Shown here: piece by piece, positions 7,089 to 62,528 of the stretch | Layout: every line of letters starts with the position of its first letter | Numbering within the stretch: position 1 is the stretch's first letter | Assembly (NCBI GenBank): GCA_964187785.1 | Contig: OZ076410.1 | Location: 61,690,001-61,754,000, forward strand | Length of the DNA stretch: 64,000 nucleotides | Source: Amphiscolops sp. MND2022 | Taxonomy: Eukaryota | Reading direction: 5' to 3' | Program-made: the position numbers and the translations under genes | Notes under the pieces: generated by a model | The model's input: only the letters and a program-made list of their open reading frames with translations | Told to the model about the DNA's origin: nothing | Databases searched by the model: none

Positions 7089-7271
7089 TAGACAGAACGA
7101 AGACCTTTTCGTAAAATCTGACAAAAGCTCTTTAGTTAAACAATCAAATCGGCAAGATTTCGTTCTTTTCAGACCTCTAGAGTCACGTTCAACTCATCAA
7201 CTATAAAGCTCTGCTCACTCCTGACAGAAACTAGAACCTCAACGAGCTGTTGATTGGAATTGAACCCTCGA

Positions 7272-7644
7272 ATGGCGGAAACGAAAGAGGTTTTCCTAAG
7301 TCACTGTGTGGCCTCGATGGGCGAGAAAGCGTCGCGGTTGAATGACAAAATCCAGGGTGAAGGATGCACCACATTCATCTGCACTAAGATGGACCCTGGA
7401 CAGGAGTTCAGACAGCAGATCACAATCAATGCTGCCAACTGTAAAATCATGGTCATCTTCTTGGACGAAAGATGGGCCAACAGTAAAGAGTGCTTATCGG
7501 AATTTAACTGCGCCTATTCGTGTTATAATAAAGGCGAGACACCCCAAATTATACCTATTATCGTGGGCGGATTTCAGTGGATTGATCCCCGAAAGTACCC
7601 CATCACACACTGCATTACATCCAACTTTCAGTGCCTGGCTCCTA
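7272..7644 (+). CDS. Exon 1 of TIR-RING-SAM-TPR gene: TIR domain
   Basis: MAETKEVFLSH (betaA), TFIC...PGQEFRQQI (BB loop/alphaB), KIMVIFLDERWANSKECLSEF (betaC, alphaC with Glu), QIIPIIV (betaD). Donor A|GTTAGT at 7645, phase 1. Confidence 0.85.
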
Positions 7645-10136
7645 GTTAGTCAAATCTTTCATGTTTTTGGGCATTCAACAAACAAAGATATTTAACCTTA
7701 ATTGCAACAAAATGGAATGTTGGAGCTGCCCTTTCAGATAAAGTTACAATCATCTTCTATAATAGTATGGTCATCTTTCACTGTTACCCAACATGTACGA
7801 GATGGGAGAAAGAAGGATATTTCGTTTTTCCGGAAAATAATTTTGATCGGAATCAATTGAAAGGCACCGATTTTTGTGTTATCGCGTTTTGCTTTTATTG
7901 TCAAAAAACTAGCGGTCAAAAATGCGTGAGTCCGTCTTTGACAATTTTCAAAAGCAATTTTTTCAATATAATTTTTTTCCACAATTTCTCGGGCAATTGT
8001 ATTTTTCATATTTATTTCTATGAATAAAATGTTTTTTTACTATATAGATAACTTTTTCATAATTATTGGAAAAACACATTTTATTCGATAGTTATCTTTC
8101 GATCGACTGACATGGAGCCAATTTTTAAGATCGAAAACGAGCCCAACTTGCTCGACACTCACAACATTACAACAAAGACGAAATCTTGTCACTTCGAATC
8201 CATTACTCCTGAACAGCTATCGCTTGGTTTGCCTAGTGAGCATTTGTCGTTAAATTTGAACTCCTCATGTCTGTTGGAAAAGCTAGCTTTCATCATCAGG
8301 GTAACACGTTTCCCCCAAAGAACATTAGTTACAGCACGGAGTTTTTTAAGTTCCTTGTTGGGCCTCTTTCTCTCTTAGCACTTTCGTATTTTGCTTTTTT
8401 ACCACAAAATGGTGGACCCAAAGTAGCAAAAAAACTCGATGTTCGTTTCAACATTTTTAACGCTTTTCTAAGTGGTCTCAAAAGAAACAATCATGTTGGC
8501 GTGATTCAAGTATAGCCAACTATCGATCTTTTGTTTGGTTTTCAAAAAAAAGGTTCGAAACTGAGATTGATTATCATTTTTATGCAACTTCAAAGAATTT
8601 TCCAGCCGAAAAAGAATTTTCCAGCCTTTTTATGAAAAATGGGCTCAACGATTAAGATTACTAGTTTTTATTTGAATTTTTAAGACTACAGAGCTCGCAC
8701 TGAAATGTTCACCTTTCATTTTACGTTCGAGATCTAAATCATACCCAAAGAGACAAAAGGCTCTTTGACAGGATCTGCGAAACTATATGGGATCAAAAGG
8801 TTTTGCTCCCCTCACCGTTTGTTCCGATATTTTTCTTTTCACCAAAGGGTCCTCTTTCGACTTTTAGTCGGCGAATTTAATAGGCAAATGTGCCCAGCTG
8901 TTCCAGTGATGTTTTTGTGTTTTTTTCGTAAGACTACACACAGATCGGTCCCAAGTTGACATTCAGTAGCCATGAGCGCTTCCAATGCAGTCTAAAATTC
9001 TTCGCTTGCAAACCTTTGACTCTCGAAGCGTCCCCTTTCTTTTGTATTTCAACCAAAAAAGCGTTTTTCAAGGCTGAAGGTTCGTATCTTTGGGTTGTGC
9101 GCACTGCAACTTTTTGCGACGTTTTTAATCAATGTGGATTTTTGTTGATGTTCAAAAAAAAATTTTAAAAAGCGTTCTTCGAAGCCGCAGGTCGCCCCTT
9201 CAGGTCTTTTTGCAACTCTGAAATGGAAATTTCCCAAAGAACCACCCCAAGCATTTTAAGACTTTGAGCTTTGAGTGGGGCGCCGAACTTAGACGTCCCG
9301 TCTTGTTTCAATTGTTATGAAAAGCTGTTTTCATGTCCCAAAGGTCCCCTTTACAATGTTTCCGCACTGCGTGACTTCTCGGCTTTGTCCTAATGAACTC
9401 CATTGCGAGGAATCTTTTGTGCGCTTCAAAACATTTTGTATTTGCTAATTTTTTTGATGATGGATCTTGCGCAAGACACTTTGAAACCGCAGCTTGAAGC
9501 CGACCGGTGCTTGATCACTTGGCTGCAAATATGACGCCATAGAGCAGAGCGCCGACTTAGAAAAGCAGAACTGTTTATTAGGTGTCCAAGCCGCGGAAAT
9601 GGGGAAAAACTTTCTTCTTGTTCAAATGTAAAATAATTACGTTTGTAAATCTTGAGTGGAGCTGATTCTCGAGATTGTTTTCATTTTTGAGAAAAGATGT
9701 TAGGAAGTAGCTCTAATTGCATCCTATTGACAACCGAAAGAATATTCTCAATGGTTCCACTCACTTCCTTTCAAAATAGTTCATTTGGAAGTCAATGACA
9801 TGTAGATTGAGTCAAGTGAACCATATAAAAGTTTTCGGAAAGCTACTTTTTGAGCCAAAATCGTTTCGATTAGCAGTCAAATACCTGTTTGGAAAGGAGT
9901 CATTTGTCATGAAAACAGGTACCTCGGTCTCGTGGAAGAGCACTTCAAGTCCAAGAGATGCAAGTTGCATCCTGTCTCAAAAAATAACGTCTCGGATTAT
10001 TTCTACGGATTGGTCGAAATTTAACGTCCAAGTTTTGGAAATATGATGACCTCAATAGTCCAAATGAACGAGAGAATGGAATTTTACACAGTAATTAAAG
10101 TTTTGAACAAATCAAGACGTAAAAAGAAACTTTCAG

Positions 10137-11313
10137 TTGGAGATTCTGTTTCAGAAGACAGCAACGCTTGGGAAGAATTGAATGCAACCCTTTTGCAACG
10201 AATTAGTGCCAAAATAGCGGAACTGAAAGCTGAAACAACAGATGCTATGAAAAAGTTGGAATCTCAGAATCAAGTCTTCATGGATTTTGTTACTTGCGAA
10301 ATATGCCAAGATATTTTCAGAGACCCCAGAATGCTTCCATGCTGTCATTCCTTCTGTAAAATATGTCTCATCAACTGGAAGAAAGGCAAAAAGGAATTCA
10401 CGTGTCCTAAATGTCGAATAAGTTGTTCCGAGAATATTGACGACTTGAAACCAAATTCGATGGCAAAACAGATTATTGAAGTGATCAATGTGCAAAACGA
10501 AAGCGGGAATTCAGCGGAAACAAGTCAAGAAGCTACTCAAAATGCTAAGGTCGAAGTTTCTGCCGATGAGTTGGAGTGTGAAACTGAACTTGCGGAATTT
10601 TTCAAGACTCACAAAATTCCAACCGCAATTTCCAAACTTCTGGTTGACAACGGATTTGATTGCTTGGACGTTGTTTTGGAAATCTCAGATGAAGAGATCA
10701 AGTCAATAGGCTTGAAACTTGGGCATGAGAAGAAACTCAAGAAATCAATCAACGACCATAAAAATGCGTCTAATGATGAAAACTCAAACAATGCAGAGTC
10801 TTATATCGAGAACTGGAAGTTAGTCAAAGAACTTTATGATGACAGAATCTTGACATCGGGCTCCAAACCAACGGATGCTCTCAAATTTTGGGCTTCTCTA
10901 ACCAAACAACTTCGAGAAAACATTGTTCAGACGCTCAAAAAGTTGACTGTCGAAGTTCGAGATAACTCGAAAATGCCGAACAAAATGAAAGCCGAATGTT
11001 TGGAAAAACTTGCTATGGTACTTTGTGACGGGGGAGAATTTGCAGACGCTGAATCCGCGGCAACTTCCGCCTTGACTCTGGATAGTTCCCCAGATCGTCA
11101 AATGGAAATCAAAGTAGTCCTAATCTATGCTATGAATAATAAATTGAAACAACCAATGTGGATTGATGATACCAAAGACAACGTCGGCTATGAGACACTA
11201 GCTGAGCTTTGCAGAGATGTTATCGAAAATCAAAAGATTTTATCCAAGGCTAAATTGTGCAAGGTGTACCTGCTGAAGGCATTCACATTGTATTCCATCG
11301 TAAATCGTTCCAG
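10137..11313 (+). CDS. Exon 2 of TIR-RING-SAM-TPR gene: end of TIR, RING-HC, SAM, TPR-like helices
   Basis: Acceptor tttcag|10137 is phase 1 (an alternative at 10155 is also phase 1). RING CEICQDIFRDPRMLPCCHSFCKIC-x12-CPKC at 10295-10414. SAM LAEFFKTHKI...LVDNGFDCLDVVLEISDEEIKSIGLKLGHEKKLKKSI at ~10583-10756. Donor AG|GTAAGC is phase 2. Confidence 0.9.
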
Positions 11314-11651
11314 GTAAGCTTTGTCTCTTGAGTTCTATGAAGTTTAACTGTTCCTTTCGCATTTTGAAAACAGTCGTCGAAAGCTGAGAAATCCTGAAAA
11401 TGGCTTGGTTTTGCTTCTTTACACCTTAATTCCATTCATAGATCAGGAACGATAATGCGCAGTTTTCTCTTCAAAATTGTCATGTTTGTTATTAAAAATA
11501 AAATGACTTGCTTCTTCTGAAGTAAAATTCTTTAAGCCTCACAATGCTGATAGTTATAATGGATCAGTCCCAGAAGCTTGAAGTACAGAGTCAAATACAC
11601 TCGATAGTTAATGTCCTTTCTGATATTGACTAGACCTACTTTTTGCTTTAG

Positions 11652-12141
11652 GTCATTGTTTTCTGAATACTTCCCCAAAGCTGAAGTCGATCTCGGAAAA
11701 GCTGTCGAAATTTGCGAGCAAGAAAACTTGAAAGGTCTCAAAGCCGAAGCGCTGATGACGCAATCACTCATGATGGCGGTCAAATCACGTGATGAGCAAA
11801 GCCGTCAAACGATGCTCAGAGCTAGAAAACTATGTCTCGAAGTCTATGGCGAGTTCTGCACTCTTAGTGCTAGAATCTACTACAACTTAGGGATCGACTT
11901 CGAAATGAAAAAAGACAAAAAATCATCTTATGAATGTTTCCGGAGAAGTTGGTTGATTGATAGACAAGTACTTGGAGTTCATCACCCTGAAACGAAGAAA
12001 TCAGGAAGCGTTTTGACCGAAGATTACCAACATGAGGCCCAGAAACTGAAAGATGTTTTGCCCGAGACATTCGAAGAGCCCACTCAGAAAGATCGAGACT
12101 ACACAAAACGCGTCAAGTTCTTGGATAAAATGACCAAGTGA
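11652..12141 (+). CDS. Exon 3 of TIR-RING-SAM-TPR gene: kinesin-light-chain/TPR_12-like repeats, stop TGA
   Basis: Acceptor ttttgctttag|11652 is phase 2 and matches exon 2. Motifs LEVYGEFCTLSARIYYNLG and RQVLGVHHPET. Exon sum 373+1177+490 = 2040 nt = 679 aa + stop. Confidence 0.85.
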
Positions 12142-15861: not shown

Positions 15862-17270
15862 TCATCTTTTTCGCCAACATCGCATCCATCTTTTTCTGAA
15901 GTTACACCGGAAAGTATTTGCTCTCATATAAAAAATAAAGTTCATTGACCGATTACAGGACACGATCAATACAGCCATGCTCTCCAGAAGATCGTCCCAT
16001 TCAGGAAATAATACTTTTAATGAGTAGAGCACTATGTAAGCCGGTGTACAAACCAAGCAAATGATACAGAGGAATGTTACTGTCTGTAGAGCCTTATGTT
16101 CTTTCGGTGACAGCAAAGGTATCACAATGTCATTTGCTTTCTTTGGCTTGAGAGTCTCAGATGCAACGTCTTCACATTCATCAGGTCTTGCTTCAGAACC
16201 ACAAATGTTGTCATTGTCTTCTGTCTCAGAATGTGATTGGTCGATTCGCACACAGCATACACTAGATCCAATATCCAACTTGATTGCTTATTCAGACGAA
16301 ATTCCACTTTTTGACCCAGAAACGCTTTCTTTCGTATTTCCTGCTGAAGCCACCGGCAATATTTCCATTGAATCATTTTCTCCTCTGTTCATTTGGTCAG
16401 AATTCGTTTCCACATCGACGTTTTCAGGTTCATTAGCGTCTGCAACTTGTTCAACGTCTACCGTTACAACTGTTTCATGGTTGCCAGAGAAAGCTGTCGA
16501 AACACACTGACCAGGTCCGCCATGGATCTCCTCCGTCAGATGAGAATAATCAGAAGGGCCCGTATTGATGTCCCTGACTTCGAACTTGGTGCAATTGGCC
16601 CCGTGCGATGCATCAACTGGCTTAACATTTGCATTGGTTTTTGAATCCTCCTTCTTCTCATTATTGTTGTCAGCGTCTTTAGCCACTTTGGGCTTGGGCA
16701 TGCGCCTAGCGAGCATTTGGCGAATGAAAGCCACAGTTGCACCCAAAAGTGCACCTGATTGTCCAATGGCTCCGTAGAGCATAGGAACCATGAGTTGATA
16801 CAAGTTCAACAACATTGTGAAGTTGCTTTTCATTTCACAGACTGAATCTTCGAAGTTGTAGAAAAGAAGGTTAGGGATGACGAGAACGAAGTGGAACACG
16901 GTCAGTGCCACCGAGATCCATCTGATTAGTTTAGGCCAGCCGCGGCTGGAGTCGTTATGCCATTCCGTTTACCTGATGGCAAGAACCCGATCTGCAGCAA
17001 GTCCAATGAGATGAGCGCCAGCGTTCATGGAAGTAGCCCAGGACAGATAGGGGTAAAGTTGGCAAAATGGGGGTCCTAAGGATCGGGAGTCAATTCCCCA
17101 AATAGCATTTGCAATTGTATTTGGAAGTATTATGATCGACGTGAAAATGTCCCATACAACAAGGTACCTGAACAAAAAAACAGTTTACCCTTCAACATTT
17201 TAGTAACCCAAGCCAATCTGCTGAAGTAAGAATGACAAATTGGAACCCGACTTTCCTGTGGAATATTTGT
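15862..17270 (-). pseudogene. Rhodopsin-class (family A) GPCR pseudogene, apparently intronless
   Basis: One continuous frame: TVFLFRYLVVWD (TM2), GPPFCQLYPY...GLAADRVLAIR (TM3, DR motif), WISVALTVFHFVLVIPNL (TM4), C in ECL2, TM5, a very long ICL3, TM6 TVTFLCIICLVCTPAYI, TM7 NRSMNFIFY, helix 8 FRCNF. It is broken by in-frame TAA at ~17185, 16969-16971 and 16288-16290, and TM1 is scrambled. Confidence 0.85.
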
Positions 17271-18390: not shown

Positions 18391-20189
18391 AGCGTACTTT
18401 CATCGATGGATGTTCAAGTAGACTTCTATTTTTCCGCCATATTTTTGTTCGAACACGAAGTAAGAACGGTTGAACAACAATGTTTCGAACAAAGGATGAC
18501 GAAAAGTTGTTGTGACTAGGAAATTACGTACGTGATGTTTAGACAATGCACTGAAATCTTGGTTCAAAAAACAAAAATGAGAAATGGTTGATGTGACTAG
18601 GAATTCACATACCAGCTTTTTACACGCCGCACTGAAAACTGGGTTTCTTGTGATCAAGTTCAATTTTTTCGATACGTAGGACTTTAAAGGTGAGGAACAA
18701 TTGATGGTTAAAGAGTATAAATATGTGTGTTTGTAAATTACGAGTTATCATTTTTGCTGTACTCCTGCCGAACACAGAACGACTTCGTTGAAAACGTCCA
18801 AACCCTCGAAACATTTTGTGTGATGTCAAAAAGGGTAATTCGAAGCCAGAAATGTCTGAAAAGACCTTCCATGCACCTACATCAACTTCCGAAAAACCCA
18901 AACGAGTAAGCAAAATAACACTCCGTTAGGTTTCGTATCGTGGTGACACGAGCTAAAACGATCCAGGATCGAATAAATCGCCATCAGCAGATGCGCAACA
19001 GGAACAGCACAGAAGCAAGCAGGATAGCTAAATTCAATCTAAGCTCGCAACGAGGAGAGATTTTAAACGAAAAACGTAAGTAGTTACTTCAGAATGGAGC
19101 GATTACTGTTATTTTCTGATTTCAAAAAGGAGCAATAGTTAACGGTTTTTCACTCCCAAAAACTGTGCCTTCCTTCAATTTGTTACTGTGGTCTAAAAGT
19201 TCTCATGTAAACTACAACTTTTCCAAAAAAAATGGAACACCGTTCCTCAACTTTTTTTCATTAAATTCGTACGCAACTGGAGACTCCAAGTCAACGACTG
19301 CATGACGTAATAATCCTGATAGTAAAAAATTTCCCTGAACCTACAGTTCAACCTATACTTCACTGCTTGTGCTTGCGAGCTAATGTGTTGAATGTACACT
19401 TGACTAAATTATAGACGAATCTTTAACGACGAGGCATACAAAGAATACAGTGAAAACCTCAGGTAAAAAACGATCGAGAGCAAAACGCTCTCCATTCTGA
19501 GTAGACATTTGCGCTTTGGACTGTGACAACAACATTGCTGTCAAAGTGGGAAACTCTCATTTGTCCCCGCTTTCCTGAACAGGTGTTGAACTCACAAAGG
19601 GGCAACATACAAGCTGCGAAGTATTTTTTCATGAATTTCTTCATCGATGCACTAACGTCAACTAATGACCTGTTGCGTCGTTACTAATATCCAATAAAAT
19701 CGACTTCAATGACCAAACATACAACTGCAATCAATGGTATCAACATGAAAGTGTCTAAATGTGCGTTCTACCTTAATCACGGGTTGAAGACAAAGGTAAT
19801 TGTCGACTGATAAATGTAGGAATGCCTACCCAGCAAACACAAGCAATCTTGTTATCGTGTTTTCTACGTTACACAACTCTCCGAAAACGTTACGTAAGAC
19901 ACCCACAGATCAAGGAGCCAATAGAGAAAAGAAAGATTATGTCTCTGTCAGTTTCATTTCGACCGCTCGAAGGACATGTAGCAAATTTTACCCGGATCAG
20001 TATCACAGTCAGCAACAACAGTGAAGACGTTTTCATGAACGGCAGGCTGACGTTGGGCACCTGGGACAGAAACCCATGACTTAGGACTGTGACCGGATTC
20101 TCATTCGGGGCGACAGCTTCTAAAAGTTGATAAACAGATCGAAAAACCGAAGACCGCTAGACAATTACAAAGCCATCAACGCAGGCAGC

Positions 20190-23100
20190 ACTAGCGGAAC
20201 CGTGCGCATTGGCTCTCAAACGACGGATCACAGGACAACAAAAGGTAATAATGACAGACGCCAGCTTTCGCGCCTCGGGATACGCGCTAATGATTGAAGA
20301 GGGCAACAAAAAGAAACCCTAATTGAAAAATAAAACCTTTGCTCGTGTAGAAATCGGATCGAATGTATTTTCATCAGTGCAATTGAAAATGATCACTTAC
20401 TGAGAAGAAAGTCTGACGATCTATCACGCCTTCCAGAATTAGAGCCATATTTTGTAGGAAGCGACCATACCAAAGCTCGTAATGACCGACAACAGGTCAG
20501 TGACTCGTTTCTTTCGAACAAGACATTACCACCTACACTATGGAATGCGTGTGACTACGTGCTGCTATTCCATTTCCACATGATGCACGTGGCTGGTGCG
20601 CAAATTCTTCAGAAGAGACAGAACAAATGTTCCTGCAACAAGAGGAACAAGCAAGACAAAATGCGCGTGACGAAGAGCCGACAGAATGACAAAAAAGAAA
20701 CAGCGCTGATACTCATCAATAAAGCTGCATACAACTTTGGAGCAATAAAGAAAGACCCCCGAACTAGAGTTGAACAGGAGACGGACCTTCTTCTGCAATG
20801 AATCAAGTGAAAGGTGAGATAAGTGGAATACGACAAACACTTGATGGCAACAGACCCAAAAGCCAGATGTCTATTTATACACGAGGATAGACTAATTGCC
20901 AAAGAGGGTATACTCATGCGTAATAACTACGGGGAATGCAGATAAGAAACGCACCAATAAATACGGATTCAAGAGCACCTAACAAAAAATCATTTTGAGA
21001 CAAACGCGGAGGAAAGGGGAACCACCCAAAAGAGGCATACCAAAAATTATCCAAGTATGCCGCTCAAAAGACTATTCTTCTGGATTAGCAAAAAAATCAG
21101 TGCGTCACGAGATATGAAGACTGTAACAAATACAAAAGAATAGATAAACGTCGGATCAGCAACACAGAACATGATTAGGCCCAGAAGACATCCTGGAAAG
21201 TGACATACTACCAAATTTGCCAAATTCTGCTGGTTATCGAAGTATTGTCACCATGACAGACGTTTTTTCATGTTATCTGTTTGATATCATTTTCAAAACG
21301 TGACAACCAGAGCAATCGAACGGTCCATCGTCGACGTCATGACAAGACATACTTGCCAACACTCATCCTATCGTACAAAGGATTTCAAATCCGTTCAGAA
21401 GTCGTTGCGAAGAGAGCAGAAATATTGAAATAATAAATAAGCCATGCGCCCACTGAACACGCACAAACGATCGGAAAACTGGAACGAAGGCATGCCTCTA
21501 TCAAAATGACACCAAAAGTCTCAACAGGAGAATGACAATCTAAATGCCACAAAAATATCCAAATTGCTGTAATGAATTACAGCAAAACATACCACGAAAC
21601 ACCTGGGCTGCGAACTGTCCACGGTACGTCATGGACGAATACCTCATAATGTACTTGACTTGAAATTAGGCAACATGCCGAAATGGAAAACTACGCTTTA
21701 TTCAGACAGAGCCGAATAATTAGAAAACCGAATTGACGGAAAGCTCGCGACAGCAACAATATACCCCAGTGCTATGTCAAGTAGAAGAAAGACTACGACC
21801 GTTAAGCGTCAGGAGCACCGCTCAAGATAAATGACTATTGCTATATCCTTAACACGAAGGCTGATAACCAGTCGACAAAACGACATTAACGAAAATTGGG
21901 ACAAAATACATGCAAAAGCTACATAGAACACAAATTCAACTCTATTAGCCAGAACAACGTATGAGTGACGTCACAGTACAATCAAATGAACATTTACCAA
22001 AAACGGACGTCAAAACGCCTCACAATGAATGGTATGCTATATCATGGGAAAAAAGTTTTGGGAACCAGGTCGACGAAGCTGCAACGAAAGAAGCAACTGA
22101 TAGCGCCCCACTCCTTGAAAGTCCACATATACGCCCAAGATCACCACCTACAGCTACAGTTGTCGGATACAATCAGCGAAAAGTAGCGAAGTATAATTGG
22201 AGACCTAATTCTAAACCTAACACTAAGCCTGACTGCAAACGACTTGACGCTATATCTTCGACTCAAAAGAAGAAAGGGAAAATTTAAGGAGTCCAGATCG
22301 AACCGACCTGACAATGTTACAATTACAAGTCTTTCTACGACCTTCTCAATTTTATTCTCTTTCTTTTACGACTCCTCCGTCTTTACTATGGACCCTTTTC
22401 TTTACTATGGAGTTTCTACAAACAACTGAACAATAAATAGAAAACAACTCTTAAACTTCAAAAGTCAACAAGAAATTTACACTAGAAAGGCAACAAACAG
22501 CATGTTCATTGATTCCACAAATAGTAATTCTTCTACCTCTTTTTCGAATCGGAAGCAGTATTATCGCTTGTCCACTTCTTTCTTACGAGCCAAACGATAA
22601 CATCGGTATGACTGCCACAACAAACGTCCGCCCAAGGAACAAACGATGTTATCAACATGAATTCTCGCTACTAGCGATGGCATTGCGCGCACTCTCCATC
22701 GTGCCTACTGTGGAGAAGGCTCCCTGCTTCTGATTGACAGACAATACAAAACTCTGCACGCACCTTCACATGCGCGAATATAGTTGCAGCAGGAACTTTG
22801 CAATCGTTCAAATCAATGTCTACAATAGACCATTTTTTTCTGATGACGATCAATAACGAGACAGCACAACTTCAAAACCTGGGTCAAACTCCTTGGCGCA
22901 TAAAACTATAGTCAGCCAAAACGTATGTCACAATGTTGGATATTTCTTCAGTGCTGTGCCCTGATCCACTATGTCGAAAACGAACATCAACGACAGGTGG
23001 TAAATCCACCACACTCGATTGACTGTCGTCGTGTGATAAACAGCCACTCCCTTCAATTACACGAAGCAACTCCGCGTGAACGCGAAACATATGCTGATCG

Positions 23101-25200
23101 TCGCTATCCAATAGCAGCTCAGGCAGTCGATCCACAAACTCGCGGCCACAGTTGTGAATTTCTAGAAGTATTTGCGAAACTCTACAAGATATTGCGAAAC
23201 TTAGTAGTATTTGAACAAATTCAAGCTCCTCCCAAATTCATATTTCAACAGGAAATCGTCAGTAGCACCCTCCCCGAAATGACACAAATTGGAGACATCC
23301 ATAAACATTTTCCAGTACAGGATTCCGGGCATATCAGTCAAGATACGGCTGGGGAAAGGAGACAATATCTGAACTGGCTAACTTCACTGTAAGCATGGAA
23401 TCTGTAGTTCTGACTTCCAGCTTCCTGCTTCGTGGACATGCAGTGATATAAACACAAGATTGGACCAATTTGGCTCAAAACAAACCACTCCCTATAAAAT
23501 GAACACATCCAAGACTCCTATTGCCAAAAACAATTCCTACGAGAACCATCACAACAGTTAACAACAGAATAAAAAAGACTCGCCTATGTCAAGAATGTGG
23601 AGCAGAAGCCCTAAATCCAGCTTGTCTGCTGATTCCAAACTCACGAGGCAGTCAAGCCCTCGAATCTGGAACAACACAGCCAGCAATGAAAACAACAAAC
23701 TAGTACCCACAATGAACTCCATCCCCAAACAAAAATAACAAAAAGAAAAGACAAAGAAGAAACAAAAGGAAAACAATCAATGTGATAATTTACCTCATTG
23801 AACCCGCTCTTTATGTGACGGGGGCCCGTATAGCCCACGTACTCCCGGATGGAGTCGTAGACAGGCACCAGCTCCGCGACGACCCCACGAAGCTCCAGGA
23901 AGGACACGTTGCCTGCTATGACTTTACGTGGCGAGTTCTGAGTGTCTTCCATCCACGGTTTTGGCAAGGCTCCACACAGCTGCGATATCAGGAAGCCGAC
24001 CATGGTGGTCATTTCCAGCATTTTAAAAATTTCCTGGTGGGCCACTCGATAGCAATGCAGGAAGATTTCAGCGGTATATTCGCGAGCATGGACGAATTGG
24101 CGCTCATCGGACACTGAGAACTCGCAGCAGAAACTTCACTCAAGCCGCGAATGCTGAAGTGATGCGTCAGCCATACTCGTCACTATCCGAGACAGCAACT
24201 CAGCGTTCGGTACACGCTGACACTGGAGCTCCAGATTCACGCACACTTCCAACAAACTGTTCCTTTCCCAGGTTCGGACGATACAGTTCTGGCTGTCGGC
24301 TTGTTCTTCAATAGCCACACCATAGGATCCTAAAGCTGTCGCACGAGATGTGACCGAAAGAAGAACTCGAGGAAAGAGCTCGGCTGATCAGCCATTTTAG
24401 GCAAGAAACAATGCAACCGAGTCGTTTTCTTTGAAATGGACGGAAAAGGGGACGAATAAAAGGAAAGAAACAAACAGAGCAACCAAAGACCATTAGTCCA
24501 TTATACTAAGCGAAGTTTCCGATTAACTCCAATGGAGATTGTAAAGAAGATCTTTTGAGCCTAGGGTTGCCGGAAAGCAACCCCAAAGTTTCCGTAAAAG
24601 AGGTAACTACCCCCACATCTACACGATTTGGCGATGCATTTCACCAGTGTCAACCAATATCTCGAGGTATTTGTATCCCATTGTCGCTCTGCTTCTATCA
24701 ACACTCAAATTCGTAAAACTGGCAACACTTTCGGTAACATTTTGCTTGAGAATGTATATCAAGTCGACTTCTGAGTGATAATCATCCAATTCTATTTAAA
24801 TGTTTGATTTCAAGCTCATCGTCCAAGTCTACCCTTCTCGCCAGCTCATTATCTTTTAATTCAGCCAAGCGGATTTTGTCATTCAATGATTCTTGGTCTT
24901 ATTTCTTTTTCACAAATGTTCCTTCGTCTACAATCATCGCTTTCTAGCTTCATTTGGACTTCGGTCGAAAACGAAAAACCCTTGAATAACCCCTTCTATT
25001 ACTCCTTCATTTCTTTTCGTCGTTCAATAGCCAAACTTATCCTTCTTCAGCTTTGACTGATAGCTCTCGAAGATAACCAAAGCTCTAAATTTATACTTTT
25101 TTATTCGAAGCACAGTTCTATTGAGATCTCCCTCTCCAACTAAACTCAATATTTACTGCAGCACTATTCCCTCTGTAATCATGTATGATTCCAGGTCTGG
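20190..25200 (+). mobile_element. Degenerate Ty3/Gypsy LTR retrotransposon (RNase H - integrase - pol end - antisense accessory region)
   Basis: RNase H: VIMTDASFRASGYALMIE...VMTDNRSVTRFF...TLWNACDYVL (20240-20600). Integrase core: LGPEDILESDILPNLPNSAGYRSIVTMTDVFS (21175-21280). Pol C-terminus: WYAISWE...RPNSKPN (21961-22287). Many stops and frameshifts. Confidence 0.85.
23641..24318 (-). pseudogene. Antisense accessory ORF of Gypsy element 1 (AHQ-motif family)
   Basis: ORFs 24136-24318 and 23641-24114 are in the same frame, separated by one TGA; homologous to 57200-57682. Confidence 0.7.
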
Positions 25201-25700
25201 TTGGCGATTTTTAGTTCACTCAAACGACTAGAGTGTGTCCTTCTCAAAGTGCGGAAACTATTTTTACTGCTGGATATACTAGACAACAAAATCTGTTTGA
25301 TCCATCAAACTACATCCAGTTTCAGAATCTGAAGACAACTTTTAGGAGAAAAACAACGAATCCCCTCAAAGTGATTGGAATGTCACACCTTCGAGAAAAA
25401 TCTTTTTTTGTGAGAGCCGTCAATTCTTTCACCTACCTCATAGATACCTAACCTTTTTCACCTTGCATCATAGATTTCCTTTATCCAACAAATAAAATCA
25501 AAGAAAATAAAGGTTTCTGCTTGAAAAACATTCAAACATGGTTTCAAGATGCAGTTATTACATTTGCTGCTACTGTAGTGTCTGCAGACCACTGTTAAGT
25601 CTTTCCTAACTAAACACAGCGTCAGTGTTTCTCTCCATATTCATGTAAAACAAGTGATTGTTTATTTAAAAACGTACTTCATTACTATTCTTGGCTCTGA

Positions 25701-25889
25701 NNNNNNNNNNNNNNNNNNNNNNNNNNNNNNNNNNNNNNNNNNNNNNNNNNNNNNNNNNNNNNNNNNNNNNNNNNNNNNNNNNNNNNNNNNNNNNNNNNNN
25801 NNNNNNNNNNNNNNNNNNNNNNNNNNNNNNNNNNNNNNNNNNNNNNNNNNNNNNNNNNNNNNNNNNNNNNNNNNNNNNNNNNNNNNNNN
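25701..25889. other. Assembly gap (189 N)
   Basis: Run of N. Confidence 1.
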
Positions 25890-25979
25890 TTCTTTTCAGG
25901 TGTCAGTGTAAGTGGATCTATTAACCGGTTAACCGGTTATAAAACGGAAGGTCCTGTTGCACGTGATACGCCACGCCGC

Positions 25980-27950
25980 GGAATCAATGTCTGTCTAAAG
26001 CGAAATGGCAGTTGAGACCTCTGGCACCGCTAGGCTGCATAGAAACATCTCGCCGGTAGATCATGCAATGTAACAATGTAGCTGAAGGAGTGCTGGATCC
26101 ACTGACAAAGATACTGAGCGGCGAGTGGTACCCACAATATATTTGCGCAGCTGATGTCGACTGCTGTACTTCCTGGGTTGCCGTCCTCTTGTCGCAGACT
26201 TCGCCAAACCTGTCTCCATGGGGGACACAAGCTCTTGAATCCCTACAAGAAACTGCAAAAGCCATTAAACTGCTGATGCATGACCTGCAGCATACAAAGG
26301 GTTAACAAACAACCAACCAAACAAACAGAAAAACTCGAAAGTTAGAATTAACAGCACATAGAAGGTAGCAGCTAAAAATAATAAGTAACTGTGAAGGGTC
26401 CAAGAAACTGCTCGGCTCTTGAAGTTCACGTAAGATGGCAGCTTCTTAAGGAGCACAATCTCAAGGGACGTCGCCCGTATCAATTTCGTCACTCACTACA
26501 AATACACAAAGCTAAAATACAACAACCACCTTAACACTCTCGTCCAGAAAACGACATCTATTACTTTTGAATTGAAACTGGCGGGGTTGGCGAGCAGGAG
26601 TAGACCGAAGTGGTCGACGTCGCATCCCTCTCGGAGCTCCCTCCAAAGGCACCTCAGCACTGGCGGCGGCTACTAAACAACAATCGCCATATCATAAAGG
26701 CGCGACAATAATAACTCCGAAAATTGATACCCGATAAGAGAGCCTAAAATTTCCGAATATTTAAAAGCAATCGTCCCGTTTTCCTGGGGACGTTAACAGG
26801 ATTGATGTAAATGGCGACGTCACAGTTTGCACACCAGCCGCAGTAATTGGCGCACTCGTGACGGACACTTGAAGTCTGTTCTACTGGAGGGACAGTCTTC
26901 CTCATCTTCGCTACAAACAGGAACGACATCAACACCACCACCCGGTGGATGCAAAGCAAAGGACGATGAAGCAGCGGGAGAAGTAGCTGCGGGATAAAAA
27001 ACAGGAATTTGAGTACTTCAGGAGGTTGAATGTCAATGACGGTAAAACTCACCAGGGACTTTGCCAAGCGAAGAAGCACGTTCTGGACCAGGCACTGTAA
27101 TCATTCCCAGCGAATTTCCAGAATGTCTAAGACTAAGCTGTGCAGATACTAATGCAGAAGATGCCTTTCTGTAGAAAGGTACAATTCACAAAAACTAAAT
27201 GGATCGGGAAATGGCAAACGTACCAACTACCGGCCGCTTGTCGACATCAGCATCACTGTGAACACAAACGTCTCGTTACTTCTCTGTGCGCCTGATGACC
27301 AGTATGGGGAGTAAAAGTCATTTCGACAACTGTCTGAAAATAAAAAGACACTGCTTAAACAGCCCAACGCTGACCCGACGTCATTATGACGTCAACAGTG
27401 ACTTGAAAACGAAAAAAAACGTCAATAAAAATTGACGTCAGCAAAACGCTCACAAAAAATTGACGTCGGCAAAACGTTGACAATTATGATTAAACGGATT
27501 ACATTATTCCTCCAGCCTATAAGATCGGCGGAGGATGAGTATCTTAACTCCAATCAGAAAGCGCCACTGCAACTCAAGACGACTTAGAGATCATCGCTGA
27601 CAGCCCGGAGAGCCCATTTCGCACCCAGAAACTTTTGTCGTGGAAGGATACTCCGCCCCGAGCAAGACATCAATCACTAGCAGGGAGGTGATCAACTACA
27701 TGGAGAAGGCAGCACTCGAAGATTCTGAGTCGTTCTTTGTCACCCCGCCTGGGCCCGCGTTAGTACCGCGATTGAGAGAAGAGGCAGCGGAAGCGAATGT
27801 ATAGGAGCTGCAGTACCCTTTCCATCAACTTCGTCACCCAGGGAAAGCTTTCCGCCTCATGACAGTGGCTCCGTCACAGTCCGCTCCCAGTCTGGGTTGT
27901 GGATGCACGAGAGTAGGTTTCGGCAGGTGTCACGGCTGTGCATCGAAGCT
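25980..27950. mobile_element. 3' accessory region and LTR-like promoter of a third Gypsy-related element
   Basis: Minus-strand SSRHQLRK motif (26142-26165) is shared with element 2 (58409-58432); TGACGTCA cluster at 27387-27468. Confidence 0.55.
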
Positions 27951-28890
27951 ACCAAGATGCTATTTTAAATCTTAAACCCAAACAATCAACAAATTAACTG
28001 TGACTTAGTAAGAATTGCACACCTATTTTTAGAGAATCTAGAGTGAAAATGACCACCTAAATGAACAATTCAAAATGATTTCACTCAATTTCGCCTATAC
28101 GTTTAAGCTACGCCGGCAATATATCCATTCTCCACCTGAAATATTAATTTAAAAACACATCTGTAGAAAGATCATAGCCAAATCTAAAACGAATACAACA
28201 TCAAAGATTAGACAATAAAGCAAAACGCTTTTCTGAGAAAGGCAGCTTAATTGCACTTTGAAAGACAATCAATGCAGAATAGGACGGTGCTACGTCACTA
28301 AAAAAACATAAATGTAGTCGACAGCGAAAAATTACTTTGTGACATCACGGTCTCGACTTGGCCTAATAGGAAAATTTGAATATTACGATGCCTTTACGTT
28401 ACAGCCTTGGCAGCTACCTAGACTTCATTCCAAATCTACGTCACGCCTAAATCACCGCTATAGCAGCTAGTTGAAAATCAGTTCAAATTCAAGTCCGCTT
28501 TACGTCCACCACTATGGAGAACTAGGCCGAAATTTAGGCAACAAATTTACCTCCCAAATTTATGAAATAAGCGTTTTGACTAGAATTGAAGTACATATCG
28601 AACGCATTTGAAGCTGCTAAAGGAAAAATCGAATGTTGTCGTAGTATTTGTTAGAAGCGAAGAAAGTCGACGAAGAATATAACGATTCGGCACAGAAACA
28701 TAATTTGATTTGAAAACTTGGTACACTCTCAACTTTATATCGTGGGATTTGACATTTGATCTTTCAGTTGCGTTAATATTGTTTTGTTTTGTTCTTTGTA
28801 TAATGAATTTACTATTCAGGTATTTCAATTTGGAAATTGATTTTATACTCTTAATGCAATAATTGCTGTATATTTTAGGAATTGAAGTTG

Positions 28891-31800
28891 AAGGACCTGC
28901 TATCATAACAAAGAATCACTGGAAAAGAAAAGCCTAAATTTACGTCAAGCTCACATCAACAATTAGAGGATTGCAGAAGGGTTGTACTGTTTCATTCACA
29001 ATGAGTTAACTAAGAAGGGAACTAGTTAAAACAGAATTTTGAAAAATTTTGGTAGTAGGTCATCTGCAAAACTAAGGTGTTCTGGTAGTTTGTCTACTAA
29101 GTACAATTTGACTGAACGTCAACGCTGCATCAATTATCAATTGAAATGAAGTCATATTTTTACGTCACACTTACGTCGACTAAGGCAATTACCATGTAAA
29201 CTAAAGTTTTCGCGTTGTTTTCCTTGTAGTGTTCCGCCTACTACAGGGTGAGCTCTGTGGTCTGACAAAAAAACGACAAAACAAACTAGCTCTTGTGAGA
29301 GTCGGGCAAACTTCGCAAGAGAAAAGGACAACTAAAACATGCGACGACCATCAAAAACATGAAACGTCAGTATAAAGACTTTTTTGTCTATGAATTGAGC
29401 ATTTTGCGTCTGTAAAAAACATGATCAATTTTGTCTTCTTGTGAGAATGCTAGAAAAGCAATTATTATGTATTCGAGCGCTGTGGGTATCCAAAATTACC
29501 AAAAAGATCAAAGATGGTACGCAAAAGAAGTTTTTCAAATGAAAAAGAAGCAAGATTTTGTGGGCTGGAGGAAAAGTTTACCTTGATTTTCCAAAATTGT
29601 TCAAGAAATGTATTTTTTCTTGCTTTTCTGTGGTCAAATTACGAATCTTTGTTTCTATCGTAAAATGACGGCACTTACAAACTCATGTCTATTCTGGATT
29701 CTGTAGTAAAACCAAACAAAATTTTCAGAAGTTGGATAAAACTTGCATTGTGAGTTGTGAAGAAATGAAAAAAGAAAGGTATGAGGGTTTTTGTTGCGTG
29801 TGAATGTTTCTTCGAGGAGAAAACTACTGATTTCTCAAATAAAACGTCTCCTACGTTTTAGTGATTTTTTTGAAACTCTGTACTTGTTTATACTCATGAG
29901 AAAGTTCAACAAATGTACAATCGCAAGAAACTGTTCGAAACGTTCCAGAATTGAGAAAAAGAAAAGTTTTTTGAAAGGAATACTTTTTTTCTGAAAAAAA
30001 AAACAATATCCAATTTCTCTTTCAACTGCATGTTGGATAGCCTCATAGGTGGACGTGGAGATCTCTGGATATTTCAAAAGGATCTGCTATCTTAACAAAG
30101 AATTACTGGAAAAGAAATGCTTAAAGGTACGCCATGCTCACGTCAAAAATGAGGGAATTGCAGAAAGGTTGTACTGTTTCATTCTTAATGAGTTAACTAA
30201 GAAGGGAACTAGTTAAAACAGAATTTCGAAAAATTTTGGTAGTAGGTCATTTGCAAAACTAAGGTGTTCTGGTAGTTTGTCTACTAAGTTCAATTTGACT
30301 GAACGTCAACGCTGCGTCAATTATCAATTGAAATGAAGTCATATTTTTACGTCACACTTACGTCGACTAAGGCAATTACCATGTAAACTAAGGTTTTCGC
30401 GTTGCTTTCCTTGTAGTTTTCCGCCTACTACAGGCGAGCTCTGGGTGGTCTGACGAAAATACAACAAAATAAACTAGCCGGGCAAATGAGAGTCGGGCAA
30501 ATATTGCAAGAAAAACGACAACTAAAACATGCGACGACCATCAAAAACATGGAACGTCAGAGTAAAGACATTTTTGGCTAGGAATTGAGCATTTTGTGTC
30601 TTTAAAAACGTGAACAATTTTATCTTTTTGTGAGAATGCTAGAAAAGCAATTATTATGTATTCGAGCGCTGTGGGTATTCAAAATTACCAAAAAGATCAA
30701 AGATGGTACGCAAAAGAAGTTATTCAAATGAAAAAGAAGCAAGTTTTTTGTGGGCTGGAGGAAGTGTTTACCTTGATTTTCCAAAATTGTTCAAGAAGTG
30801 TATTTTTTCTTGGTTTTCTGTTGTCAAATTACGGATCTTTGTTTCTATCGTAAAATGACGGTACTTACAAATTCATGTCTATTCTGGAATCTGTAGTAAA
30901 ACCAACCAAAATTTTCAGAAGTTGGAAAAAACTTGCATCGTGAGTTGTGAAGAAAAGAAAAAAGAAAGCTATGAGGGTTTTTGTTGCTTGTGAATCTTTC
31001 TTCGAGGAAAAAACTACTGATTTCTCAAATAAAACGTCTCCTACATTTTAGTGATTTTTTTCAAACTCTGTACTTGTTTATACTCATGAGAAAGTTCAAC
31101 AAATGTACAATCGCAAGAAACTGTTCGAAACGTTCCAGAATTGAGAAAAAGAATAGTTTTTTGAAAGGAATACTTTTTTTCTGAAAAAAACAATATCCAA
31201 TTTCTCTTTCAACTGCATGTTGGATAGCCTCAGATGTGGACGTGGAGATCTCTGGATACTTCAAAAGGATTTGCTATCTTAACAAAGAAGTACTGGAAAA
31301 GAAATGCTTAAAGGTACGCCATGCTCACGTCAAAAATGAGGGGATTGCAGAAGCGTTGTACTGTTTCAATCATAATGAGTTAACTAAGAAGGGAACTAGT
31401 TAAAACAGAATTTTGAAAAATTTTGGTAGTAGGTCATCTGCAAAACTAAGGTGTTCTGGTAGTTTGTCTACTAAGTACAACTTGACTGAACGTCAACGCT
31501 GCATCAATTATCAATTGAAATGAAGTCATATTTTTACGTCACACTTACGTCGACTAAGGCAATTACCATGTAAACTAAGGTTTTCGCGTTGCTTTCCTTG
31601 TAGTTTTCCGCCTACTACAGGCGAGCTCTGGGTGGTCTGACGAAAATACAACAAAATAAACTAGCCGGGCAAATGAGAGTCGGGCAAATATTGCAAGAAA
31701 AACGACAACTAAAACATGCGACGACCATCAAAAACATGGAACGTCAGAGTAAAGACATTTTTGGCTATGAATTGAGCATTTTGTGTCTTTAAAAACGTGA

Positions 31801-32455
31801 ACAATTTTATCTTTTTGTGAGAATGCTAGAAAGGCATTTATTGTATCCGAGCGCTATGGGTATCTAAAATCACCAAAAAGATCAAAGAAGGTACGCAAAT
31901 GAAGTTATTCAAATAAAAAAGGGGCAAGATTTTTGCGGGCTGTTGGAGGCGTTTTATTGAAGGAAAAATTTAACCTTGATTTTCCAAAATTGTTGAAGAA
32001 ATGTAGTGTTTCTTGGTTTTCTGTGGTCAAATTACGAACCTTGTTTTTATCGTAAAATGACGGCACTTACAAACTCATGTCTGTTCTGAACTCCATCAAA
32101 ACCATCCAAAATATCCAGAAGTTGGCCTAAACTTGCATCGCGGGTTGTGAAGAAATGAAAAAAGAAGGCTATGAGGGTTTTTGTTGCGTGTGAAGGTTTC
32201 TTCGAGGAAAAAACTACTGATTTTTCTAAGAAAACGTTTCCTACTTTTTAGTGATTTTTTTGAAACTCTGTACTTGTTGATACTCATGAAAAAGTTCAAC
32301 AAATGTACAATCGCAAGAAACTGTTCGAAACGTTCCAGAATTGAGAAAAAAATAGTTTTTGAAAGGCATACTTATTTTTTCTGAAAAAAATCCAATTTCT
32401 CTTTCAATTGCATGTTGGATATCCTCCTGTGTGGACGTGGAGATCTCTGGATTTT
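28891..32455. repeat. Tandem array of three ~1187-bp units
   Basis: aagga(c/t)(c/t)tgctatc(a/t)taacaaagaa recurs at 28891, 30078 and 31265 (period 1187). The paralogous ORFs at 29791/30981/32181 confirm it. Confidence 0.95.
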
Positions 32456-33109
32456 CTATCACTTGCTAACATAAAAGAAAACTATCCGAAGAATGCGACC
32501 TAATGGTCAACGATATATGTCTATCATGGTGTCGATTCAAGGCACTAAATTACTCGTCATAAAAGCTTACGATACGAATTTTCTTCGTTTGTGAAATAAG
32601 TGGTTGCTTGAATCTCCCAAAACCTTCAAAACAATACAGCAATTGTCCAAATTAGTTTAAAAATGAACGTTCTGGGGTTTTGGGGTAATTTTGAGTCATT
32701 TTTAACAAAACATATCGAATTCCTCTCCGTAACAGTGTACAGGGTTGCTACTTGATTCGTTGTTGAAGCATATGGCTGTTTTGATGTATCGGAACGTTCA
32801 AAAACTGTTTAAAAGTTGCCCTAAAAGGTCAAAAAATTTTTTTTGGCTTTTGGCTGAGAAACATTCGAACCCACGAAATTTCGGAAAACTGGACAGAAAT
32901 TGCATCAAAAGGTTTTGAAAATGGAAGATTTGCGGTCATTTTGGTCGTAACCGCAAATGTCTAAAGATCTCTACTAATACACCTCACGCCAGAATGAATT
33001 TTATGTCTCTTGATTTTAATGTGAAACCCTTTCGATTTGTGTGTGACATCGAAACATATGGAAAAAGCTCATATAGTAACCTATTTTCGATTACCGAAAT
33101 GTTAGCGGA

Positions 33110-52797: not shown

Positions 52798-55700
52798 ATG
52801 AGCGAACACCCCTCCAAACAGGAAAAAAACACACAAGACGTTGTTAACCGCGACACATTGTGTGATTCTGACATGGTGACAGAAGCCACAACTACTCACC
52901 AGACGAACTCAAACCAACCACCACCCACCACAGATACTCACAATCGTCTATCCATGACATCGACTATATTGTGGCCGAAATTCATCATCTCGACAATGAG
53001 CGACATTCAGTGAGTCAACCGAAGATACTGCAGACACAAGTACCACTCTTTCGCACTCTTTCGGGGTAACAGAGAAAAGTATAACTATTTCGAGCACCTG
53101 CTGTTGAACCACCTCCAAGCCCACCAACACCGACTGACGGAAAACAGAACTTGACAAACTTCTAGAGCTTGCTGCACGACGACGCCATTGAATTCTGGAA
53201 AAGACTCAAGATCAACACACAGACAACCGAGGCACAAGTACTTAGGTATTTCGAAAAAGAGTATGCCAAGGAGGACCTTAAAGAAGTTGCCAAGTATAAA
53301 TTTGACCAAATGCACTTCCTTCCTACAACAGAGACGTTCAACGACTTCCTAAACAAATTCAAAAAAATGGCAAAGCAAACATTCAGTGACAGGTCATCTG
53401 ACATAACAGAGACGTTCTTCTTCGCAAAGCTTCCGGTACAGATGCAAAATGAACTAGCAGTAGTCGGAAAACACGATGCTTCAATCGATGTAATCAAGAC
53501 GTTTGTGCAGAGACGAAACCAGTGTGCGCAATTGATGCCAGCCACATCCAACACACAACCCTTCAACCAAATCGGAGTGCAACAATGCTCGAATCAAACA
53601 ACCTTCAGTACTAACCGTCAGCGCCAGTCAAGTCGAGAAATAAACGCAAGTTCGATGGACAAGGCAATGCGGAATCCATCGACACGAATGGGCTGAGTGC
53701 AGAAAACGTCTCGGAGAGCAGAACACAACAAAACCAACAACCCAAAATCAACAGCAAACAACTGCACCGATCCAAAACCAAGACAACAAACCGAAAAACA
53801 ACAGCAAACTTGTCTGCCAAAGACGTAGCAAGGTAGGACCTTCTGAAAGTGATTGCTACTAGAGGAGCCAAACCAGGTCATTCTACCAAAATGTTCCATA
53901 CACCAAATAATCTACGGATAAAAACAAGCAGTTCCTCTAGGACTTCCGAGAAGCGAACAATAGAGCTTACACAACAAACGAACTGTCCCACCCATACCCC
54001 AAGAGTGCTGAGACAGAAGACGCTGCAGAGATGCAAGACCCAAAAAACTTCTGAAGCCTCGAAAACAAAATATGCGCAAAGAAACAACGCCCAACCTAGT
54101 ACAACTCACCACAACGACTATACTGACAACTTAACGCGGTTGCAGACACGTTCACCTACTTACACTAAAGAGACAACGAACTACGTCATAACTCACTCTA
54201 CTGACAGCTAGCTATACGATTCGGCCCAAAACCAAACTGATCGAAACCAGAAATTTAGAGAATGAAGTGACCCCTGTAAATACTTCCCCAATTGAACCCA
54301 TTCTAGAGGCAACCGAATCGCTCCAACTAAAGGCAAAGAAAACGCCGAAATTAAAACAATACTAAATCCGCCAACTGAGTGCGACTCTTCAACTAAACAA
54401 GAAGGACCGGATGCAGTACGCCTCCCTTCAATTCCGCAGCTACGAAAACATCGGTCTTCTCGACACCGGCGCGATACAGAGTGCCCTCTCAGAAGTCGAA
54501 TTGCGACGAACACTCACAACCCACCCTGCAGCCCTCCTTGAAGAACTACCCGCCCCAGACTTCAAGGTACAAATTGCTAATGGCAGCATATTACAAGTGA
54601 GGAAACAAGTTCTTCGTTTCTTCATTGTGGGCAAAGTGTTTGGAGAAACCTTCATGTTTATACCTAAAATGGGTAACGTCATCATAGGCATGTCATTTTT
54701 CAAGAAATATTCCGTAACTCTGGACCTCGCCAACAACATTGTCAAAATGCTGGATATAACCCTTCATATCCGCCCCATGAACGGGAAGTTCAAAAACAAA
54801 TTGAATGAATTGAAGACGACGCAGAAGACGGTCATACAACCACATCAACAAGTGTTCTTACCAGTTATCACCGAACGAGACATTGGTGACATTACCGGCA
54901 CAGTTGAAGGCCTGCCTGCGTTCGAACGAAAATCTCAGTTTCTGGTGTCACCTGCGCTAATTGAGTTCCCGGAAGGACGAACGCATGTCAACCCACCAAC
55001 CCACTAGATTACCAAATAACAATCAACGTGGGGACAGCGGTAGTTTCTCTCAAAATCTTGACACCCAAACACACTCATGCCAATGACCAACCAGCAGTGA
55101 TCGATCATCTCAAAATACCATGACGACGAAAATGCAGCACTAAACCAACTCTTTCAAGATCCAGCGACCAAATCAACAAGACGATGGTTTCCTACCCCTG
55201 GATCATGTGATGACCCGTCAAAACTCAACAAGATTGAACGACGCATATACGACCAGATCATCAAACTCAGAACAGGAAAACATGGACCCAACCGCTAGTG
55301 AACACCAACGGCAAGGATTCTTAGCAAATTTCCAGTAGAAACAATCAATCTTGAGCATTCAAGAGAAACAAACGATAGAGGCACTGTTGGTTAAGCACCA
55401 TGACAGTTTTGCCAGACATAGACTGGACATCGGTAATAATACGGAATTCAAAATAAAATTGACCCCAAAACACGATGAACCAGTCTACGCACAAAGCTTA
55501 TCCACAACCCAACGAATCTGAAAGACGATTTGTTAGTCGAACTGGCGTTGATGCATGAGTACGGCCTAATCACGACATTGCCTCATAGCAAGTACTCGTC
55601 ATCTATCGTTGCACAACGAATGCCAAATAGGACGCTGAGCGTCCTTGTCGACCTCGGAAGAATCAACAACCATTCACTGAAGAACGACTGCAACCAGCAC

Positions 55701-61787: not shown

Positions 61788-62098
61788 TTTAGATACCTGA
61801 TTTGAGAAAGCGAGACTGACATGATATGAATCAAATAGGACTTTATGTGATTAAACCCGATTTCCCGATTTCTATTATACATAGGAATTTTTAGGTGAGG
61901 AGCAAATGATGCTGGAAAGGTATATTAATATAGATTTTTATATATGTAATTCTTTATACATCCCAGCATCATTTGTTCCCATCATCATTTGTTCCTCACC
62001 TGAAAATTCCTATGTATCCTTGAAATCGGGTTTGTTCACAAAAAGTCCTAGTTGATTCATAACATTTCAGTCCCCCGTCCTTAAATCAGGTATCTAAA
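61788..62098. mobile_element. 311-bp foldback element (MITE-like)
   Basis: The left arm tttagatacctgattt...ggagcaaatgatgctgg is the imperfect reverse complement of ccagcatcatttgttcc...aaatcaggtatctaaa, around an AT-rich loop. Confidence 0.85.
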
Positions 62099-62243
62099 TG
62101 TTTTTATATATATGTAGATTCATGTAAAGGTATTCAGTTAATTGTTAGTTTTTCAACCTGAATACTCATCGTTTGTAAAACGACAGAATAAATATATTTT
62201 CTTCGAAGAACTCATTGTTACAGACGATTCTTTCTTGCTGAAA

Positions 62244-62509: not shown

Positions 62510-62528
62510 GCAAGCTATTTTGCTGCTT

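Follow-up and report, generated by a model that had tools for sequence, protein, structure and literature searches.

The antisense open reading frame at 23641-24135 of the window (the whole stretch of DNA analysed here, 64,000 nt) is the decayed relic of one exon of an eight-exon gene that lies antisense in a Gypsy retrotransposon; the gene probably encodes a hAT-derived protein, likely non-catalytic, that likely acts as a nuclear DNA-binding factor and would sustain the promoters of the element. We are highly confident of the position, orientation, exon structure and selection of this gene, of its presence in the sampled elements, and of a predicted hAT fold that has a zinc finger and no shared DDE/RW set; a role of the protein as an activator or anti-silencer of the element is a tentative proposal, made by analogy with other transposase derivatives.

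A first-pass annotation of the window had described a coding frame shared by two divergent Gypsy elements, and its alignment could be reproduced: 16 of 30 residues are identical between the two copies, and 9 of these 16 are encoded by different codons. The blocks exist as described, but they lie one base away from the positions given, at 24081-23992 and 57469-57380 on the minus strand. Over 98 aligned codons the copies share 33 identical residues (21 with different codons), and the two regions match each other in tblastx at E 9e-15. Searches with intact copies (tblastn) also agreed with the annotation that both blocks follow a remnant of the pol end, on the strand opposite to the gag-pol remnants. 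What had to be given up is the ORF as the unit of the gene: 23641-24135 is a stop-to-stop frame that begins at a premature stop in exon 6, passes the GT donor at 23793 and the T-rich intron 6, and continues into exon 7, and its hydrophobic C-terminal third is translated intron 6. Both copies in the window contain stops and frameshifts, plus an insertion or deletions, and are pseudogenes.

In element 1, a decayed Gypsy pol (RNase H, integrase and the C-terminal RPNxKP end) occupies 20185-22290 on the plus strand, as located by tblastn with the pol of intact copies and by Pfam on the intact pol. The antisense gene follows on the minus strand, with a frameshifted remnant of exon 8 (22575-23447; acceptor now non-canonical), the exon for the helical insertion and C-terminal part of the hAT-like fold; exon 7 (23584-23665, 82 nt, from a DNA alignment of six copies; AG acceptor kept, donor non-canonical); intron 6 (23666-23793, with the GT donor at 23793); and exon 6 (23794-24396, the 5′ boundary being approximate), which encodes the RNase H-like core and contains the block at 24081-23992. 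In this copy of exon 6 a stop at 24138-24136 ends the frame early and a short segment is deleted; its identity to exon 6 of copy L033 is 58% over 24378-23806. Exon 5 is split into a 3′ part (24514-24653) and a 5′ part with a decayed BED-type zinc finger (25930-26240), both on the minus strand, by an insertion of about 1.3 kb that contains a stretch of N (24654-25929, delimited as the gap between the exon 5 matches). On the plus strand there are a remnant of a second extra ORF, divergent from the antisense gene (27619-27969), and a remnant of the 3′ LTR (27830-28286, by blastn to the LTRs of L033, L034, L049 and L050). Element 2 retains decayed gag, protease, partial RT and pol end (53145-56141, plus strand); a 3′ remnant of exon 8 (56492-56915), exon 6 with a frameshift near 57625 and the block at 57469-57380 (57200-57807), and a frameshifted exon 5 with the zinc finger (57940-58438), all on the minus strand; and, on the plus strand at 59641-61931, the start of the sense extra ORF (59641-59742) with LTR remnants (60522-61931).

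The ORF had been assigned to an uncharacterised accessory protein family, which is correct in that there is an antisense gene, and which missed both its length of about 1,100 codons over many introns and its predicted hAT transposase fold. Copy L033 contains eight exons and seven GT-AG introns of 76-175 nt, giving 1,104 codons without a stop. At four junctions defined by motifs, GT/AG was found in 74/74, 65/65, 75/78, and 56/56 cases among loci L001-L100 (related and partly overlapping copies), and sequence conservation starts and stops at the GT and AG dinucleotides. The antisense gene is thus predicted, from genomic DNA, to be spliced from eight exons.

The introns form a series: seven are present in one clade, intron 7 is absent in a subfamily (L087, L089, and L095, in which exon 7 is continuous into exon 8), and introns 5-7 are absent in a third lineage (L121-L139). 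We found 28 natural proteins of 526-890 residues (including P0035 and P0312-P0338) that carry exons 5-8, or much of these, in one frame, which together with L087, L089, and L095 lends independent support to the predicted exon joins; one such intron-less relative, P0327, is 100% identical to a locus of this genome. Ten out of ten intron-less copies also lie antisense in Gypsy elements, with the upstream introns kept. The distant relatives P0119 and P0149 end at the position of intron 5 and branch below the intron-less clade in a midpoint-rooted tree, which, on that rooting only, favours loss of introns rather than gain. Since P0312 and P0119 are at most 49% and 46% identical to anything found in this genome, the gene family is probably also present in other genomes; a search for longer proteins with exon 6 returned no match.

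We searched the genome (1.07 Gb) for further copies: the first-look candidates numbered 2,042 and 2,477 for the two window ORFs, each of which had at least 150 scored matches, and most of these matches lay in frames of 220-300 codons. A gene-selected sample was taken as 20 kb around each of 30 copies picked from three subgroups. In all 30, the antisense gene runs opposite to pol (or what remains of it) and is flanked by long direct repeats of 95-99.9% identity. The full elements are 15.5-16.4 kb long with TG..CA ends, and 5-bp target duplications were seen in 11 of the 12 elements checked, the twelfth having one mismatch. Pfam recognised gag, protease, RT, RNase H, and integrase in Gypsy order (L090/L089 and L132). 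By these sequence characters the carrier can be classified as a Ty3/Gypsy LTR retrotransposon, and many of the elements that carry the antisense gene are young. As a control against gene-based choice, we also selected loci by pol, with two pol C-termini as queries and the 30 best matches to each retained (60 of at least 300 listed); these are close relatives of the two queries, two of the 60 being the query elements, and do not amount to a census. Exon 8 lies antisense just downstream of pol in 60 of these 60 loci, and in 52 of them its frame stays open for 330 codons or more. Taken together, 90 of 90 sampled elements (the samples overlap) carry the antisense gene at one site and in one orientation.

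To measure selection, we dereplicated the copies at 95% and kept those with an open gene frame. The dN/dS ratio in the gene frame is 0.05-0.18, which supports the earlier claim of a selected protein-coding antisense gene in Gypsy elements: 0.18, 0.14, and 0.16 for exon 6 (4, 5, and 144 pairs, the 144-pair value being near saturation), 0.16 and 0.05 for exon 5, and 0.12 and 0.09 for exon 8. The accompanying expectation that the ratio falls below 1 solely in the minus gene frame was borne out for four other frames (near or above 1) but not for one frame of the gag-pol strand, which has dN/dS of 0.16-0.43. This frame would speak for the conservation being the shadow of a sense env, and regulation by antisense RNA, in which the RNA rather than the protein would matter, has been discussed (PMC7264820); yet the constraint on the sense frame is always weaker than on the gene frame, the frame contains stops in 16/16, 18/18, and 13/13 sequences, and the splice sites and the fold belong to the minus strand. 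Because every sequence has stops there, we regard the constrained sense frame as a shadow of the antisense gene and not as env, in line with the first-pass view. An env or env-like ORF3 was also considered as such and rejected, since it requires an open sense frame. The env half of this explanation is refuted by the sequence comparison, an additional role of the antisense RNA is conceivable, and the explanation as a whole has almost no likelihood left.

The link of the gene product to hAT transposases is structural and remote. AlphaFold modelling of P0327 (a natural intron-less protein; 141-row alignment) gave pLDDT 87.6 and pTM 0.77. Foldseek with this model returned Hermes at all of ranks 1-10 (best E 2.7e-4, prob 1.0), and VIA-align against 48,161 chains matched Hermes at Z 12.4 (rmsd 5.4 Å, 403 residues, model 150-649 on Hermes 133-609) and the next match at 6.4; six Hermes entries reached Z 12.4-13.6, versus 5.3-5.8 for Tn5, ISCth4, and RAG1. 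The Hermes match has an rmsd above 5 Å and TM of 0.43-0.51, depending on the target. A first model (exon 5, in-frame intron and exon 6) was weak (pLDDT 51), with Hermes still ranked first, and a wide structure search with it returned RNase H-like folds only, at Z below 7. Atlas searches pointed to hAT-derived families (ZBED/ZNF862-like) with scores of at most 0.85, to be read as leads only, and, with exon 6, to unnamed matches of at most 0.85. Pfam scans of exons and full-length relatives gave nothing significant, zf-BED had no match in the gene product, and PDB sequence searches with five alignments found nothing below E 0.5. Canonical hAT transposase ORFs with recognisable catalytic motifs are present elsewhere in the genome (L171-L185); when 21 ORFs from such loci were searched with the family profile A7, none was recovered (best E 0.27), and hhalign against hAT gave a probability of 1.3%, for the zinc finger part only. 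A PF14291 search of the genome had no match, and neither did its control. On the strength of the models, the gene product is predicted to be derived from a hAT transposase.

The BED-type finger (CxxC..H..H) is conserved in both clades, at C24, C27, H44, and H50. The residues essential in Hermes are D180, D248, R318, W319, and E572 (PMC6027215, in part). We placed the corresponding positions by secondary structure and by the motifs of this genome's hATs, rather than by residue-level superposition. At the first place (column 194) one clade has Q/R/H/K and the intron-rich clade has E in 19/28 rows; the second (column 251) is variable, before a kept glycine; the RW motif is replaced by xF; and columns 609-623 contain no acid common to both clades, column 618 being D/E in 23/23 rows of the intron-less clade only. 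The complete Hermes set is thus in neither clade, and no acid is conserved across clades at the three expected places. The protein has likely lost the DDE/RW catalytic set and would be a catalytically dead hAT derivative. The CxxH motif of hAT transposases is absent from it as well. Both termini of the protein are of low complexity with basic stretches, and the upstream exons encode NLS-like basic stretches.

No terminal inverted repeats were found at the gene ends in the five copies examined (5/5). The first-pass annotation had named a separately inserted known gene as what would overturn its reading: the origin does appear to be transposase-derived, but the gene is a fixed part of the element and has no such repeats. 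A still-active hAT transposon nested in the Gypsy element, or a neutral passenger, would also show the predicted fold, and canonical hATs do occur in the genome. The constant site and orientation (90/90 in the overlapping samples), the missing terminal repeats (5/5), the lack of a shared catalytic set, the strong purifying selection, and the match of three gene clades to three pol lineages largely refute this explanation, which we consider very improbable.

The three gene clades match the three pol lineages in the trees, which indicates that the capture of the gene is old. Exon 6 is only 38-59% identical between subfamilies with integrases that are 72-98% identical. Within lineages the gene is uncoupled from its carrier: integrase pS is 0.04, 0.07, and 0.09 in the pairs L033/L039, L093/L097, and L123/L137, versus gene pS of 0.63-0.80, and nucleotide identity drops from 92-99% to about 55-80% in a segment whose limits lie near the start codon and slightly beyond the stop. 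Very different alleles therefore stand behind LTRs and spacers that are 92-99% identical, which argues against tight allele-specific self-recognition, and the presence of old alleles on near-identical backbones suggests that the gene is exchanged as a cassette. With alleles swapped behind near-identical LTRs, any target motif must be common to the alleles; the comparison of LTRs and spacers revealed no shared target motif across alleles. Spacer repeats resembling TGACGTCA were rejected as a general target, since there are 2-3 in one lineage, 1 in a second, and 0 in the third. Similarly, a toxin-antidote pairing with the sense ORF was rejected, since these genes had reassorted independently of each other in all three pairs compared.

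We propose that an ancestral Gypsy element received a hAT element or transposase gene in antisense, whose ends and catalysis were lost and whose gene was kept. The genomic RNA of an LTR element is spliced in sense only; introns antisense to it would for that reason survive retrotransposition. Transcription of the gene would require a dedicated promoter on the minus strand, which probably lies in the spacer of about 500 bp common with the divergent sense ORF. Introns 5-7 may later have disappeared from one clade and intron 7 from another, probably when cDNA copied from the spliced antisense mRNA recombined with the gene, and recombination events flanking the gene may have moved alleles from one backbone to another. 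The protein would be nuclear and DNA-binding and would keep the promoters of the element active against host silencing. A nuclear DNA-binding factor fits the kept finger, the lost catalysis, the basic low-complexity termini and the fact that no sampled element lacks the gene. Sequence-specific activation by transposases is known, DDE-less derivatives exist, and TnpA arose from a transposase (bioRxiv 10.64898/2026.08.24.746577, in part). The known activator function and the origin of TnpA lead us to favour activation or anti-silencing over two other roles for a protein of the same origin.

One of these is a host-facing antagonist or decoy that would disable a host silencing or restriction protein, or saturate host sites, with alleles under frequency-dependent selection. 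The many deep alleles reassorted on the same backbones would suit such a protein, as would its faster change relative to pol; nevertheless, dN/dS is low throughout, no test showed positive selection, the zinc finger is the best-kept part, and no partner is known, so that we consider an antagonist unlikely. The other is a role in integration, in which the DNA-binding and oligomerisation surfaces of the transposase would tether or escort the Gypsy pre-integration complex to chromatin or to chosen targets. A similar function has been suggested for plant antisense ORFs (PMC7264820), and both the DNA-binding fold and the NLS-like stretches of the upstream exons are compatible with it, but the 5-bp target duplications vary in sequence, as with Gypsy integrase, and a protein made from a separate antisense mRNA would have no obvious way into the particle; we rate this role as improbable.

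Most known examples of additional antisense genes in LTR retrotransposons come from plants. ORFs of this kind between pol and the 3′ LTR (aORF-3R) of Ty3/Gypsy elements are reported for plant Retand, maize Grande, rice RIRE2, and fungal Boty; the Retand ORF has the TRP28/Transposase_28 domain (PF04195), the Grande ORF is gene23, and the origin of these ORFs is called unknown in both sources (PMC11963269, PMC7264820). They have been described as without similarity to other TEs (PMC7264820). The gene reported here is like them in position, orientation, occurrence in nearly all copies and a proposed nuclear or DNA-binding regulatory role, and by its sequence it can be counted in the aORF-3R class; a promoter of its own upstream, shown for Grande, is predicted here on the minus strand. 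In contrast to Retand TRP28, exons and full-length relatives had no PF04195 match at E up to 1. It also differs from aORF-3R in its roughly 1,100 codons with 4-7 spliceosomal introns (PMC11963269 makes no mention of introns), in a traceable (predicted) hAT fold, in alleles that are exchanged as cassettes, and in a host that, judging by neighbouring genes, is probably an animal.

With hAT transposases (Hermes, PDB 4D1Q/8EDG; Ac, hobo, and Tam3) the protein shares, by prediction, a BED finger, a DNA-binding region, an RNase H-like core with helical insertion, and a C-terminal region (PMC6027215, in part); unlike them, it has no shared equivalents of D180/D248/E572/R318/W319, no terminal inverted repeats and only 10-11% identity, and the gene moves only within the LTR element. 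DAYSLEEPER/SLEEPER, the trio of FAR1, MUSTANG, and TnpA (bioRxiv 10.64898/2026.08.24.746577, in part), and the ZBED/ZNF862-like proteins similarly combine a transposase fold under purifying selection with absence of catalysis and a likely role as DNA-binding regulator, whereas here the transposase would have been tamed by a retrotransposon of the other class, neither by the host nor by the same DNA transposon, and exists in high copy number with many alleles. VANC of VANDAL is likewise an accessory protein encoded by an element and proposed to counter silencing, but has a different fold and element class, and we found no co-varying target motif (PMC5735166, in part). HTLV-1 HBZ, too, has a regulatory function and lies antisense towards the 3′ end of an LTR element (PMC11963269, in part); the present protein is unrelated to it and much larger, and its start in L033 lies inward of the 3′ LTR. 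Rotifer LTR elements capture other types of ORF3 (PMC5408684, in part).

Our searches of the open literature listed no LTR retrotransposon with an antisense gene that is hAT-derived or has many introns. The predicted fold makes an origin readable, namely a DNA transposase tamed by a retrotransposon, and such an origin leads to a testable function: DNA bound by the zinc finger, and the lifting of silencing. An LTR element can evidently carry a seven-intron gene through reverse transcription, and its copies provide natural material for following how introns are lost and alleles exchanged. The gene family is large (more than 2,000 first-look candidates per exon query) and young, and the factor may thus help to explain the expansion of the family. 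In the boldest reading, to which we give somewhat less than even odds, domestication of a class II transposase by a class I element has produced a spliced, antisense and apparently obligate gene with dozens of ancient swapped alleles, forming a polymorphic counter-silencing system in an animal, with introns lost via the element's own reverse transcriptase.

The second extra ORF of these elements is in sense, has about 210-300 codons, starts about 500 bp from the antisense start and extends into the LTR; examples are 27619-27969 and 59641-59742 in the window, and L033:1587-2423 (minus strand) and its relatives. In two lineages it has a hydrophobic-then-acidic start that we take to resemble a SUMO-interaction motif, and, in the same two lineages, a Cys-rich, RG-rich tail at its end; Pfam gave no match to this ORF. 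Whole elements also occur in head-to-tail arrays with a spacing of about 13.6-14 kb (C10:2574480, 2588119, and 2601758; C13:16516414-16554871).

Elsewhere in the window, we noted a small TIR-domain ORF at 7254-7649 (plus strand; TIR_2, E 8e-12), a gene with RING finger, SAM, and TPR in two long frames at 10025-12141 (plus strand), and frames at 15862-16968 (minus strand) that by eye resemble the C-terminal half of a seven-transmembrane receptor, with no Pfam match at E 0.01. Three tandem copies of a unit of about 1.19 kb, 90-96% alike, occupy 28810-32460. A partial tandem duplication with a spacing of 3,671 covers the element 2 spacer, sense ORF, and LTR region at 58858-64000, and a 77-nt inverted repeat lies within it at 61788-62098.
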